A stretch of DNA of 64,000 nucleotides from contig NW_025963791.1 in the NCBI RefSeq assembly GCF_023055435.1, forward strand, positions 11,532,001 to 11,596,000, read 5' to 3'. Shown piece by piece: positions 8,430-45,013 of this stretch (position 1 is the first letter of the stretch; each line of letters opens with the position of its first letter). This DNA comes from Haliotis rufescens. Taxonomy: Eukaryota. The translations under genes were made by a program, and so were the position numbers. Below the pieces are notes generated by a model. That model worked only from the letters and a program-made list of their open reading frames with translations. It searched no databases and was not told the DNA's origin.

Positions 8430-9276
8430 TGATGGTGTGACTTATTTCTGTGCTTACAACGACCTCTCCATTATTGAAATGCCGTCGTGATAAAACCGTT
8501 TTGGTCAATTCCAAATCTTAAGTGTACACTTACTTTTCCTCGGCAATATATATCTGCAACCGGTGGCATCGAACATAAATTGTGGACAACAAAAATATTA
8601 GAGTATTACACACTAATAATTGCGCTGACAACCGAGTGTCAAATATTAATGGGCATGTCCTGCTTTCCGATGTCAGCTCTCATATATAGCTTGACACCGG
8701 GTGTCTAGGATAAATAGGTGTGTCCTTCTACTGGGCGTCATCCTTCCGACTTGGGTCATCCACTGGGTGTAGATATATCTCTACAACAAATACATAGTAT
8801 ACTTTATTGTACGCGTGATGAAATGCATCTGCACTGTAAACAATGTGTTTAAAATGTAAAATAAATAAAATAAAACCGACAAAACCATCCCATATTCATA
8901 AAAAATCTAAACACGTATAGAAATGTGTTTTAATCCTAAACGGAGCACTCATTTGGTGTCTTCTATCTCACACTTTTAGGGTCTAAACACATGAAATGAG
9001 CTATCGTCTCACAGCCGGAACGCCGTCTGAACCCAACATCCTCTTAATCTAAACACGTTTAGAATTTGAACATGTCTTTCCCACAATCGTAATCCTAAAC
9101 ATGTTAAGATCCCCAAACGCGTCAAAGTTATGGGAGAAGGCAGTGTTAAGGTTTGTGTTCAGACACATTGTTTCCAGCGTGAGGACCAAGTTTACTGTTT
9201 TAGGGGATTAAGCCAACCTCCAGAACCATAGAGAAAAATAAGTCCAACTCAAGTCTACAACGATTTGGCAATTCTC

Positions 9277-9323
<47 letters not shown>

Positions 9324-42300: not shown

Positions 42301-45013
42301 TAAAGTTATATAACATCGAAGAAAACACATATGATATCTACAGCATCGAAGAAAACACATATTCTATAGTTATACAACATCGAAGAACAAATATATCATA
42401 TCTACAGCATCGAAGAAAACACATGTGCTAAAGTTATACAACATCGAAGAAAACACATATGATATCTACAGCATCGAAGAAAACACATATTCTATAGTTA
42501 TACAAAATCGAAGAACAAATATATATCATATCTACAGCATCGAAGAAAACACATGTGCTAAAGTTATATAACATCGAAGAAAACACATATGCTATAGTTA
42601 TACAACATCGAACAACAAATATATGATATCTACAACATCGAAGAAAACACATGTGCTATAGTTATACAACATCGAAGAACAAATATATGCTATAGTTATA
42701 CAACATCGAACAACAAATATATGATATCTACAGCATCGAAGAAAACACATATTCTATAGTTATACAACATCGAAGAACAAATATATCATATCTACAGCAT
42801 CGAAGAAAACACATGTGCTAAAGTTATATAACATCGAAGAAAACACATATGCTATAGTTATACAACATCGAACAACAAATATATGATATCTACAACATCG
42901 AAGAAAACACATGTGCTATAGTTATACAACATCGAAGAACAAATATATGCTATAGTTATACAACATCGAACAACAAATATATGATATCTACAGCATCGAA
43001 GAAAACACATATTCTATAGTTATACAACATCGAAGAACAAATATATCATATCTACAGCATCGAAGAAAACACATGTGCTAAAGTTATATAACATCGAAGA
43101 AAACACATATGCTATAGTTATACAACATCGAACAACAAATATATGATATCTACAACATCGAAGAAAATACATATGCTATAGTTATACGACATCGAAGAAC
43201 AAATATATGCTATAGTTACACAACATCGAAGAAAACACATATGCTATAGTTATACAACATCGAAGAAAAATGATATACTCCAGTAAAACAACATCAAAGT
43301 AAACACATTCTACAATTGTTACGCCGTATTTACCCGCGGGGTGGTGGGGGTGGGGGTGGGGGTAGGGGTGGAGTGGGTATATAGATTCCCAGTAACCCAT
43401 GCTTGTCATGCGAGTAAGTGCAGTCCTGCTTGGTGACTTGTGTGTCGTCGTGTCCTATTACCCATGCTTTGTATCATCTGTTAGAGAGGTACAGACTCGA
43501 TATTAGTTAGGGGCACTCACTCACTCACTCACTATCACACTGTTACGTCGTAGTCAGTAATAGAACAGCTATATCACGGTACACGTGGATGTAATTGAAT
43601 CTGGATCAGACAAACCTGTGATCGATGTACATGGACGATGGCACATATTCAGTCACAGCTGAAAACCTAGCATCCCCGTGCAAATATCCACTAGATTCTC
43701 GTTTAACATGCATGTAGTGACAACACAATGATCGGTTGCTCAGGCCTGCTGATGTGGTCGATGTTTTCTCGTGGTGGACTGAAGTCCCCGCGTTTCGTCA
43801 GAAGCCCCGTGGCATTTATCAATTAGGCTGAGTTAACCACAAAAGAAATGTTTGGGCCGAGACATAAAAACACAAACACGAACCCCCTCCAACCCCATGA
43901 GCGAAATATTTCTTCAGTGGTTCTCTTTACCATCTTCCCGAGGCAAGGGAATTAACTGACTATAAAAGTCCAGTTTCCACCCTTGCCGAACTTGCTGGAA
44001 TTCTGGAGTTACATTTTGGCTGGACTAACGAGTCTATGTACAGTCCAATCAGAATCGCGTAACGAACGACATGGATTTCAAGTTGCAGATTTCGGTCGAC
44101 TGCAAGATTTGCAAAGCATGCGTATCGCCAACTGGGCGTCGACAGATATTTTGCGATTTATTTCATGTTTTTAATCAAGGTGCTCAAGTGATTTGATTCA
44201 CTTCGCGGGGTACGGCCCGTTATATTACAATATAGAAGAGACATACCTCGTAATAGCCACTGGTGGCGCTACGATCGACCCCAGAAATTCCAGCCTAGTT
44301 CGGCAAGGGTGGAAACTGGACTTTTATAGTCAGTTAACTCCCTTGCCTCGGGAAGATGCTCTTTACGTGTAAGTAGCACAATCTCTGCACTTGTAATTCA
44401 AGAACCTGCTGTCTCACAGTAAACGTTTTAGTGATGACACCAACACGAACGTCAAGATCAAAATCATTATTGTCACTAAGTGATGGTGATTGGTTTGACG
44501 CCGCTTTGAACTGCATTCCAGTTATATCATGGTGTGTCAAACTAAGTGAGGGAGGCCTCGGACGTTTACCACTTCACCGCGAGCACGTGTATGGTGCTGA
44601 CACACCTAGAAACATAATCAAGGAGAACAAGGATTCGAACCCACGATTATAGGTTATAATGGACGCAATTTCTTCACAGCTAATTAAGACGAATGGGATG
44701 AAGGCCTGGGGGTCAATTAGTTGCATCATGCATCAGCTAAGATTCAGGAAATAATTAGCATGTTATACTTCTACCTACCTAGGGTGATCCCTGGGATGAA
44801 GTTCTGGCGATTGAGTTGCTTGAGGGTCCATCGAACGGCTTCGTGAATTTGAACAGAGACACGGTCGATGCCGGCACACTGGCCGCCTTCACTTGACTGT
44901 ATGGAGAACAACCCTCCCATCAGGATATCCCCCGGCAACGTGACGACGTTCTGTGACTTCCCCGGCACCACGATGACCAGCACCGACAGACAGATTGATG
45001 CAAGGAGTGTCAT
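27406..45013 (-). CDS. Receptor copy B: single-pass membrane protein with two tandem Venus flytrap (ANF_receptor/mGluR-like) domains and a Tyr-motif tail, ~1086 aa, 10 coding exons
   Basis: Hand-spliced exons, all GT-AG and phase-consistent: 45013-44779, 42142-42041, 36317-36139, 35945-35055, 34518-33037, 32166-32033, 30907-30801 ([35 protein letters not shown]), 29507-29475, 28499-28458, 27461-27406 (TAA). Sum 3261 nt = 1087 codons. mGluR-like motifs: [77 protein letters not shown]. The three small tail exons are less certain than the ectodomain exons. Confidence 0.85.
28259..28365. mobile_element. PIF/Harbinger-type MITE
   Basis: ~34-bp perfect TIR ggcccacttgcacaaagcgatcttagcgctaaga with a 3-bp CTG TSD. 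Similar elements at 38732-38840 and (degenerate) ~2870-2975. Confidence 0.8.
29029..29382 (+). mobile_element. SINE family 2 full copy
   Basis: TSD ctcattgcatatt. An older diverged copy lies immediately upstream (~28690-28975). Confidence 0.9.
29988..30195. other. Assembly gap (N run) next to (GTGA/GAGG)/(GT)n microsatellite 30196-30310
   Basis: The run of n lies in the copy B intron after the TM exon. Confidence 0.99.
31302..31770. repeat. 57-bp minisatellite, ~5-6 copies
   Basis: gctgattaagtgaagtca recurs at 31326, 31383, 31440 and onward. Confidence 0.9.
31511..31681 (+). mobile_element. SINE family 1 inserted in 57-bp minisatellite
   Basis: Full copy; TSD ctgattaagtgaa. Confidence 0.9.
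37223..37552 (+). mobile_element. SINE family 2 full copy
   Basis: Matches the 1979 and 29029 copies. Further copies at ~45590-45800, 49070-49460, 53560-53860, 62437-62740 and 63423-63770. Confidence 0.88.
37791..38380 (+). mobile_element. Helentron-associated (HINE/pearl-like) element
   Basis: Starts AACAAGAG, has ~180-bp internal tandem repeats, a (GACA/GACG)n microsatellite and a terminal palindrome/G-run. A similar element lies at ~5755-6400. Confidence 0.65.
38865..40200. repeat. 43/47-bp minisatellite, ~28 copies
   Basis: Unit acagtgtaaataaagaagttgccatccatacaaagtgccttttattg and variants. Confidence 0.95.
40479..40644 (-). mobile_element. SINE family 1 inserted in a MITE
   Basis: Full copy; TSD ttagttcgttata at 40466-40478 and 40645-40657. 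Confidence 0.9.
41366..41876. mobile_element. Foldback-type MITE, TA-flanked, internal inverted TTTCTCGTTATTTCG subrepeats
   Basis: TIR cgaaagcctaatggtgccact.tggtagcata. A structurally similar element lies at 1234-1433. Confidence 0.8.
42150..43270. repeat. 30/34-bp minisatellite with ~260-bp higher-order period, abutting copy B exon 2 acceptor
   Basis: catcgaagaaaacacat recurs at 30/34-nt spacing. A higher-order block recurs at 42469, 42731 and 42991. Confidence 0.92.
43931..44358. mobile_element. Non-autonomous DNA transposon with ~62-bp TIRs and 8-bp TSD (hAT or P-like)
   Basis: TIR catcttcccgaggcaaggga...cttgccgaact; TSD ctctttac at 43923-43930 and 44359-44366. Confidence 0.88.

Follow-up and report, generated by a model that had tools for sequence, protein, structure and literature searches.

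Patchy homogenisation of two tandem double Venus-flytrap receptor genes in the abalone Haliotis rufescens

Results

Two neighbouring receptor genes

The window, a stretch of 64,000 nucleotides of the Haliotis rufescens assembly (GCF_023055435.1, contig NW_025963791.1), contains two neighbouring genes on the minus strand, gene A (LOC124141164) and gene B (LOC124141188) (Table 1). All internal junctions of both models are AG/GT, and the exon 5-exon 6 splice of gene A is present in an RNA contig. The translation of the gene B model is identical to RefSeq P0001; that of gene A is identical to RefSeq P0002 from the exon-4 Met onward. No third copy was found in genome searches or in the 10 kb flanking the window at each end. 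An N stretch (29988-30195) lies inside intron 7 of gene B, and the content beneath it cannot be inferred.

Both proteins consist of two mGluR-type Venus-flytrap (VFT) domains, a Cys stalk, one transmembrane (TM) helix and a short cytoplasmic tail of 39-65 residues, which carries Tyr motifs and no enzyme. The domain search returned two ANF_receptor stretches per protein and no match to 7tm_3 (PF00003), kinase or cyclase domains; the chain ends after the one TM helix. An AlphaFold model obtained with a 92-row alignment (pLDDT 90.6, pTM 0.83) places the TM helix at residues 1012-1042 and has a disordered tail. Its best fold matches are mGlu VFTs, with TM-target values of 0.73-0.89 against mGluR ectodomain chains (PDB 1ewk, 2e4v, 6n4y; 0.87 for 1ewk). 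Genes A and B are a tandem pair of paralogues for a double-VFT receptor that crosses the membrane once.

Gene A has two features that were absent from the preliminary description. A 1.74-kb tandem duplication gives it two extra tail exons of 57 nt and also contains an RT_RNaseH_2 retroelement fragment. Gene A also has an in-frame TAA at codon 161, in exon 3. Position 17850 is 100% G in 3/3 DNA runs from three studies, one stop-free DNA contig is tied to A's own intron, and the A proteins of H. cracherodii, H. rubra and H. asinina are full length. Rather than marking pseudogenisation, the stop probably reflects either a null allele of low frequency or a mistake in this assembly.

Table 1. Position of the features of genes A and B within the window
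Feature	Position	Strand	Remark
A exon 1	20583..20817	-	Signal peptide and first part of VFT1; same as B from nt 30 on
A exon 2	18333..18434	-	VFT1 strand 78-84 and helix 89-105; locus-specific, dS ~0.7
A exon 3	17817..17995	-	3 nt differences from B
A in-frame TAA	17850..17852	-	Codon 161; Tyr codon in B
A exon 4	16324..17214	-	Remainder of VFT1; converted
A island a	16963..17010	-	Codons 241-256; residues 248-250 KGR; dS 1.07
A exon 5	14671..16152	-	VFT2; converted until ~codon 937
A island b	15475..15603	-	Codons 653-695; dS 0.78
A exon 5, 3' end	14671..14748	-	Codons 938-963; locus-specific, dS 0.55
A exon 6	14202..14329	-	Last VFT2 strands and Cys stalk; joined to exon 5 by RNA contig
A exon 7	13577..13698	-	TM helix
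A tail exon 8	11708..11764	-	IYTEPV motif, copy 1
A tail exon 9	9401..9457	-	IYTEPV motif, copy 2
A last exon	8728..8780	-	YLHP motif and stop
1.74-kb tandem duplication	9277..13323	.	Copies 98.2% identical; doubled A tail exon
98-bp tandem repeat	20368..20613	.	2.5 copies of exon-1 end and donor site; A intron 1
B exon 1	44779..45013	-	
B exon 2	42041..42142	-	Locus-specific
B exon 3	36139..36317	-	
B exon 4	35055..35945	-	VFT1
B island a	35741-35694	-	Within exon 4; residues 248-250 RRQ
B exon 5	33037..34518	-	VFT2
B island b	33969-33841	-	Within exon 5
B exon 5, 3' end	33114-33037	-	Locus-specific
B exon 6	32033..32166	-	Last VFT2 strands and Cys stalk; one DNA match in genome search
B exon 7	30801..30907	-	TM helix
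B tail exon 8	29475..29507	-	
B tail exon 9	28458..28499	-	TDYDSI, ITIM/ITSM-like
B last exon	27406..27461	-	YLRA and stop

Comparison of A and B exon by exon

As had been described, exon 1 is identical past the signal peptide, its 6 nt differences all falling in the first 29 nt, and exon 3 differs at 3/179 nt, one of the three making the TAA of gene A. Exons 4 and 5, reported as highly similar, differ at 44/891 and 77/1482 nt. The amino-acid counts given for exon 2 (19/35) and exon 6 (19/42) were reproduced, the former including two split Gly codons; 17/33 whole codons are identical. The TM segment and tails had been called very different, which holds for the last exon (7/17), but the TM helices are homologous (15/35 over the exon), each with a Glu close to the N-terminal end.

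Uniform dS across exons, which the preliminary description had named as contrary to its reading, was not found: A-B dS is 0-0.15 in exons 1, 3, 4 and 5 and 0.7-1.4 in exons 2, 6 and 7, with dN/dS below 1 in the diverged exons. The border between homogenised and diverged sequence lies inside exon 5, at about codon 938. Converted exons measure 179, 235, 891 and 1482 nt and diverged ones 102-134 nt and shorter, with no exception. The reported loss of homology in most introns was confirmed, the longest common local alignment in introns 2-6 being ~38 nt. Intron 1 retains 85 nt common to A and B (83/85), and A and B also have 16 nt upstream of the ATG in common; with these stretches shared and the short exons skipped, mRNA-templated conversion was set aside.

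Conversion in separate abalone lineages

The annotations of H. cracherodii and H. rubra contain the A+B pair as well. No H. asinina B orthologue turned up among the 7994 candidates scored. Cross-species tests were based on protein sequences, four A (rufescens, cracherodii, rubra, asinina) and three B (rufescens, cracherodii, rubra) in the trees. In the rufescens/rubra quartet, 74 informative sites up to residue 930 were species-type and 1 locus-type; beyond residue 930 there were 20 locus, 2 species and 1 other (Fisher p 2e-17 if sites are taken as independent). The cracherodii/rubra quartet gave the same pattern. In the trees, exons 1+3, exon 4 and the exon-5 core split rubra+asinina from rufescens+cracherodii with bootstrap 100, whereas the stalk, TM and C-terminal part united the three B proteins with 98-100, the grouping by species and by locus that the preliminary description had expected. 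Protein identity over exons 1, 3, 4 and 5 is 92-98% between rufescens A and B, versus 82-91% between rufescens A and rubra A. The exon 2 quartet was limited to cracherodii because the H. rubra B model is without a proper exon 2; it gave 11 locus and 0 species sites, and identity to rubra and asinina A likewise groups this exon by locus.

The old duplication with repeated, exon-limited conversion that had been proposed is upheld by both the site counts and the trees. At the level of protein sequence, the long exons are shown to have been homogenised by conversion separately in each abalone lineage; as the cross-species test was positive, conversion is shown rather than assembly collapse. The accessible part of PMC13575190 places the Turbo-Haliotis split at ~111 Mya; no divergence date within Haliotis was found in the literature.

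A second cluster (C583) contains two genes alike over exon-4 codons 121-307 (pS 0.00-0.10), with exons 1, 2 and 5 saturated (pS 0.70-0.71). Judged on these values, it is an independent case of patchy conversion, covering part of one lobe only.

Diverged islands and the putative ligand pocket

Two old diverged islands lie inside the converted exons, island a in exon 4 and island b in exon 5, with the dS values of Table 1 against 0.07 for the remainder of exons 4-5 (island scan permutation p 0.0001-0.001, with windows sized after the data were seen). Residue 249 is Gly in 4/4 A and Arg in 3/3 B orthologues. Residues 248-249, which are highly variable across paralogues, align with the Arg-Ser of the mGlu2 loop VLFTRSED; the assignment to a pocket loop is made from alignment and secondary structure, not from model coordinates, and the trans-species signal is chiefly that of site 249 and its diverged neighbourhood. 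In H. rubra, island b has been homogenised. The substitutions of island b flank the motif residues without touching any of them, S659/T660 being unchanged. An island on the predicted pocket loop points to tuned specificity. Resistance of diverged patches to conversion can also be neutral.

The amino-acid motif is kept in VFT1 (T120, S145-A146-T147, D167, Y195, E274) and partly in VFT2 (S637, T660, Y708, with Leu680 at the Asp position); we take the mGlu1 equivalents of these positions to be amino-acid-binding residues. The Arg position, presumably that which binds the side chain of glutamate in mGluR, is Ile in both VFTs. The ligands of A and B are probably amino acids or similar. A role of Ser165 among the mGlu1 ligand positions is given in the accessible part of PMC3703292. 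The earlier view that the ligand-binding exons are kept alike stands for exons 1, 3, 4 and most of 5, but not for exon 2 of VFT1, which is old-diverged, nor for loop 248-250, which differs between the loci; with exon 2 and both islands diverged inside the VFTs, homogenisation is incomplete across the ligand-binding domain.

Four RNA runs aligned to gene B have A-type letters over island b and the exon-5 end. B exon 6 is nearly uncovered in them, which was not counted as evidence on B expression. Run X17 contains two variants across island a, with 15 and 5 differences from B, which could represent A and B or a converted allele.

Transmembrane helix and tails

The TM helices of A and B contain no Lys or Arg, and none of the 7 tails of A and B orthologues contains an ITAM. 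YDSI occurs in 3/3 B tails (TDYDSI twice, SAYDSI in rubra) and 0/4 A tails; YxEP and YL(H/R)P occur in 4/4 A tails. Y[LI]xP is found in 31/48 single-TM relatives, A's YLxP being a common family motif. The B motif is of the form TxYxxI/SxYxxI; the ITIM consensus is also matched in the tails of 13/48, so the single match in B is weak. From these motifs, the tails would act through phosphorylated tyrosines and SH2 adaptors, by way of YxxP in A and YDSI in B. The label of activating and inhibitory pair is reduced to a resemblance: the single ITIM/ITSM-like motif of B fits it, the lack of a basic TM residue and of an ITAM does not.

Discussion

The account favoured here, though with reserve, combines converted long exons, a locus-specific exon 2, stalk, TM and tail, and selected islands. 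Exons 1, 3, 4 and most of 5 have been overwritten between A and B, separately in each lineage of abalone; exon 2, the exon-5 end, stalk, TM and tail have remained locus-specific. Conversion would require a few hundred bases of surviving homology, and the short exons may escape it because the introns can no longer be aligned. Selection likely retains the islands inside converted exons, as an opsin-like divergence peak. The two receptors would share a common scaffold and likely differ in ligand tuning and tail adaptors.

A purely mechanical mosaic is rather improbable as a whole. Under it, exons of sufficient length for pairing (179-1482 nt plus flank) convert, the short ones (102-134 nt) stopped once introns had diverged, the islands are chance refuges, and A and B are near-redundant with no adaptive meaning. 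The sorting by length, the dN/dS below 1 in diverged exons, the conversion of island b in rubra and the null allele of A in this assembly are consistent with it, as is the statement, in the accessible text of PMC3924837, that conversion needs "typically a few hundred nucleotides". Against it, the islands are as old as exon 2 yet sit in long exons converted on both sides, island a differs in the rufescens and rubra lineages alike, and the locus-specific tail motifs are conserved between species. Even if the favoured account is right, the mechanical process probably underlies some of the pattern, in exon 2, stalk and TM. An assembly collapse or chimera, the refutation envisaged in the preliminary description, or a duplication of recent date whose short exons evolve fast, would fit the identity of exon 1 past the signal peptide but is exceedingly improbable. 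It is refuted by the same pair in two other species, A-specific DNA contigs (0-3 differences) in three other runs, the high synonymous divergence of the short exons, and the quartets and trees, in which the tails group by locus across species.

True paired receptors, responding to one ligand with opposite outputs within the same cells, are unlikely but deserve mention. B would be inhibitory, its ITIM/ITSM-like motif recruiting a phosphatase, and A would activate through YxxP adaptors; this would be an invertebrate paired system built on VFT sensors with a shared scaffold, in a lophotrochozoan family that signals through tail tyrosines without 7TM or kinase. Conversion would be selected so that the ligand-binding parts stay matched (merohomogenisation, under which Siglec-11/16 and CD300A/C are further vertebrate paired receptors). 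The distribution of YDSI fits, as do adjacent paralogues with an ectodomain homogenised at 92-98% identity in exons 1, 3, 4 and 5 and a locus-specific stalk, TM and tail in the three species with both genes. This is the pattern of KLRC (NKG2A-C-E), KLRI1/2 and PIR in the accessible text of PMC3210942: adjacent paralogues, exon-patchy ectodomain conversion within species, and one member that is ITIM-like. Unlike these, A and B have a small-molecule VFT fold instead of a lectin or Ig fold, neither partner has a basic TM residue or ITAM, and part of the predicted ligand site (exon 2 and the pocket-loop residues) escapes conversion. The commonness of YLxP in the family, the ITIM matches among its tails, and the second cluster, which converts only part of one lobe, also argue against a true pair.

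The NPR-C clearance receptor has one guanylyl-cyclase-type VFT, one TM and a short tail with no enzyme. A and B, of which it is an atlas neighbour, likewise join VFT, one TM and an enzyme-free short tail, but their VFTs are in tandem and of mGluR type. With mGluR and class C GPCRs (1ewk, 2e4v, 6n4y) they share the VFT fold, the amino-acid motif residues and the start of a Cys-rich stalk; they differ in having two VFTs per chain, a very short Cys stalk and one TM in place of the 7TM. Venus kinase receptors, as presented in the accessible parts of PMC3703292 and PMC4026697, are also invertebrate and single-pass with a class-C-type VFT, and Tyr-based signalling is expected in A and B as in them; however, they have one VFT and a tyrosine kinase, where A and B have two VFTs and a kinase-free tail. 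Primate red/green opsins resemble the abalone pair in being tandem genes with ongoing conversion and old islands around functionally placed substitutions, but according to the accessible text of PMC3924837 opsin introns are converted and exons diverge, whereas in A and B the introns are unalignable and the long exons converted.

The double-VFT, one-TM, Tyr-tail architecture is widespread in gastropods, bivalves and the brachiopod Lingula, in proteins annotated only as uncharacterised or hypothetical. A literature search, covering main texts, mostly of papers outside subscription, gave no publication about the family or about the two loci. Abalone sperm are attracted by tryptophan and abalone larvae sense lysine; the search gave no support for a link of A or B to either. 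The pair provides a clear-cut example, from an invertebrate, of exon-patchy concerted evolution, and its islands are pointers to the residues that distinguish the two receptors. The architecture would allow amino-acid-like cues to be sensed without a G-protein-coupling 7TM or a kinase. If the outputs were opposite, paired-receptor logic would reach invertebrate chemosensing.

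Gene models and domain architecture

Comparison of the window with itself gave matches of exon size between 14–21 kb and 33–45 kb. Ten exons were modelled for each of the two tandem genes, A and B, both on the minus strand. The B product (1086 residues) is identical to RefSeq XP_048248200, and that of A to XP_048248201 from the exon-4 Met onward. Behind a signal peptide, each has a pair of ANF_receptor (Venus flytrap, VFT) domains, followed by a short Cys stalk, a single transmembrane (TM) helix and a short tail; a Pfam scan detected neither a 7TM domain nor a kinase or cyclase. 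The structure predicted from a 92-sequence alignment (mean pLDDT 90.6, pTM 0.83) has a TM helix at 1012–1042 and a low-confidence tail, and its top structural matches are mGlu receptor ectodomains. Exons 5 and 6 of A are joined by splicing in one contig of a presumed RNA run. A 57-nt tail exon of A is present twice through a 1.74-kb duplication; it is single-copy in H. cracherodii A. The second copy of a 98-bp repeat is 98% identical to the exon-1 end of B, and the repeat could provide alternative donors.

Codon 161 of A is TAA, which is absent from the preliminary description. In three of three DNA runs (three studies) only the Tyr-codon letter is found, in contigs that drop rare variants, and one such contig runs on into A's own intron. 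As A is also full length in H. cracherodii, H. rubra and H. asinina, the stop is likely either a rare null allele or a mistake of this assembly.

Coordinates of features, in the window unless a contig of the H. rufescens genome (G000) is named
Feature	Position	Strand	Remark
Gene A (LOC124141164)	8728–20817	−	
Gene B (LOC124141188)	27406–45013	−	
RT_RNaseH_2 retroelement fragment	10622–11071, 12933–13325		doubled with the tail exon of A
98-bp tandem repeat	20368–20613		copy of exon-1 end and its splice donor
Gap in X19 contig	33871–33886		
SRP68 gene	51398–57668	+	five exons match PF16969; synteny marker adjoining B
Long minisatellite, 51-bp unit	6702–8429		500-codon open frame left on minus strand
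Long minisatellite, 93-bp unit	3932–4775		
Long minisatellite, 47-bp unit	38877–40212		
Long minisatellite, 34/64-bp unit	42150–43308		
Second receptor cluster (L029–L041)	C583:8034569–8148600		
Gene with stops in this cluster	C583:~8081000–8084300		
VFT exons in runs (L009–L021)	C290:3.61–3.68 Mb		many exons

Concerted evolution of A and B

The difference counts of the preliminary description were reproduced on recount. The two genes differ in exon 1 by 6 nt, confined to its first 29, and in exons 3, 4 and 5 by 3/179, 44/891 and 77/1482 nt; 17 of 33 whole codons are alike in exon 2 and 19 of 42 in exon 6. The dS of exons 1–7 is 0, 0.73, 0.02, 0.15, 0.11, 1.4 and 1.2 (few sites in short exons), that is 0–0.15 in exons 1, 3, 4 and 5 versus 0.73–1.4 in exons 2, 6 and 7, and is saturated in the last exon. 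Loss of intron homology at the splice sites holds for introns 2–6, unalignable beyond about 38 nt, but intron 1 retains 85 nt in common.

Orthologues were A and B of H. cracherodii and H. rubra, and A of H. asinina. There are two A-type genes in H. rubra, LOC124259844 and LOC124259845, which are nearly identical; the second, annotated without exons 1–3, was excluded from site counts. In the rufescens/rubra A/B quartet, 74 sites up to residue 930 are of species type and one (residue 249) of locus type; past 930, 20 are of locus type, two of species type and one other. In trees of seven proteins, exons 1+3, exon 4 and the exon-5 core are divided by species group (bootstrap 100), whereas the three B proteins are united in the stalk, TM and C-terminal part (98–100), the tail alignment being uncertain. 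Exon 2, tested without rubra B, whose model lacks it, has 11 locus against no species sites with cracherodii; the A proteins of rubra and asinina share 26/34 and 25/34 positions with rufescens A, against 19/34 with B.

This pattern supports the old duplication and exon-limited conversion proposed earlier: the A/B duplication predates the rufescens–rubra split, and the long exons have been homogenised since then, separately in each lineage. Assembly collapse is ruled out by the quartet and trees. Concerted evolution of A and B is real and well supported.

The receptor family

When 1.84 billion representatives were searched, 178 proteins matched with E values of 1e-30 or below, 150 of them listed. 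The listed proteins include 72 non-self ones of 900–1850 residues; a simple scan showed just one hydrophobic segment, late in the chain, in 48 of these, a few of which are likely mis-built 7TM models. Y[LI]xP occurs in 31 of these 48 tails. Two ANF_receptor stretches without 7tm_3 were found in 35 of 37 scanned relatives, and five with 7tm_3 in the other two. P0032 and P0039, mollusc proteins of 2800 residues with five VFTs and a 7tm_3 domain, are multi-flytrap class C GPCRs. The 20 members looked up include Haliotis, Patella, Nucella, Babylonia, Batillaria, Solemya, Potamilus, Mactra, Dreissena and Lingula proteins, and an Argopecten five-VFT GPCR; all named members are annotated as uncharacterised or hypothetical. 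No paper on this architecture or on the A/B loci was found in open-access literature. The family is apparently undescribed; conversion mosaics as such are already known.

Predicted ligand sites and tails

A role of Ser165 in the amino-acid motif is described in PMC3703292. Aligned with mGlu5 and mGlu2, VFT1 retains Thr120, Ser145-Ala-Thr147, Asp167, Tyr195 and Glu274, and VFT2 retains Ser637, Thr660 and Tyr708, with Leu at the Asp position. The motif residues presumably act as in mGluRs. Both domains have Ile in place of the mGluR Arg that binds the side chain of glutamate. The kept motif and this replacement suggest that the ligands may be amino acids other than glutamate.

All four A tails contain YxEP and YL(H/R)P, putative Nck/Crk sites of the YxxP type. 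YDSI is present in three of three B tails (TDYDSI or SAYDSI; the rubra B model stops early), a putative ITIM/ITSM of the form S/T-x-Y-x-x-I.

Divergent islands and interpretation

Within exons 4 and 5, dS reaches 1.07 at codons 241–256 (island a) and 0.78 at codons 653–695 (island b), versus 0.07 in the remainder (p 0.0001–0.001 by scan permutations, window sizes having been picked after the data were seen). Island a includes residues 248–250, at the loop between strand 242–246 and helix 249–262 of the predicted model, aligned to Arg-Ser of the mGlu2 'VLFTRSED' loop, which presumably lines the ligand cleft. At residue 249, 4/4 A proteins have Gly and 3/3 B proteins Arg, and around it rubra A and B are also unlike. 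Island b covers the VFT2 amino-acid motif and the following helices; its case is weakened by the unaltered residues of the motif and by homogenisation in rubra. Nine bases of island b are missing in another organism's transcript contig (run X19), so that it is also indel-variable between species. The locus-specific exon-5 end (codons 938–963) forms strands running on into exon 6 (strand 959–968 of the model), and may be held so by its structural partner there.

Converted exons are all at least 179 nt and diverged ones at most 134 nt, a division that favours a neutral mosaic. Conversion needs homology of 'typically a few hundred nucleotides' (PMC3924837), and short exons flanked by unalignable introns may be too short to pair. 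Such a length rule can account for the escape of exon 2, the stalk, the TM and the tail, but not for the two islands within long exons, and a neutral origin of the whole mosaic is unlikely. Divergence peaks amid conversion are a described mark of selection, with an opsin example, in the same paper.

The preliminary description saw the signature of paired activating/inhibitory receptors. A and B do evolve like those in PMC3210942, but two defining features are missing: no A or B protein has Lys or Arg in the TM, where both have Glu, and no A or B tail has an ITAM. A true opposing pair is unlikely also in view of the second cluster, six further two-VFT single-pass genes of the same exon plan. 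Two of these have exon-4 codons 121–307 (two thirds of the exon) in common at pS 0.00–0.10, with exons 1, 2 and 5 saturated and the pocket-loop equivalent in the diverged part. Among most cluster members, synonymous divergence is low in exon 3 (pS 0.34–0.48 in 9/10 pairs); in exon 5 it is 0.71–0.82 in 9/10 pairs. A and B are probably tuned paralogues. Since the second cluster shows it too, patchy conversion is a habit of the family, not peculiar to one opposing pair.
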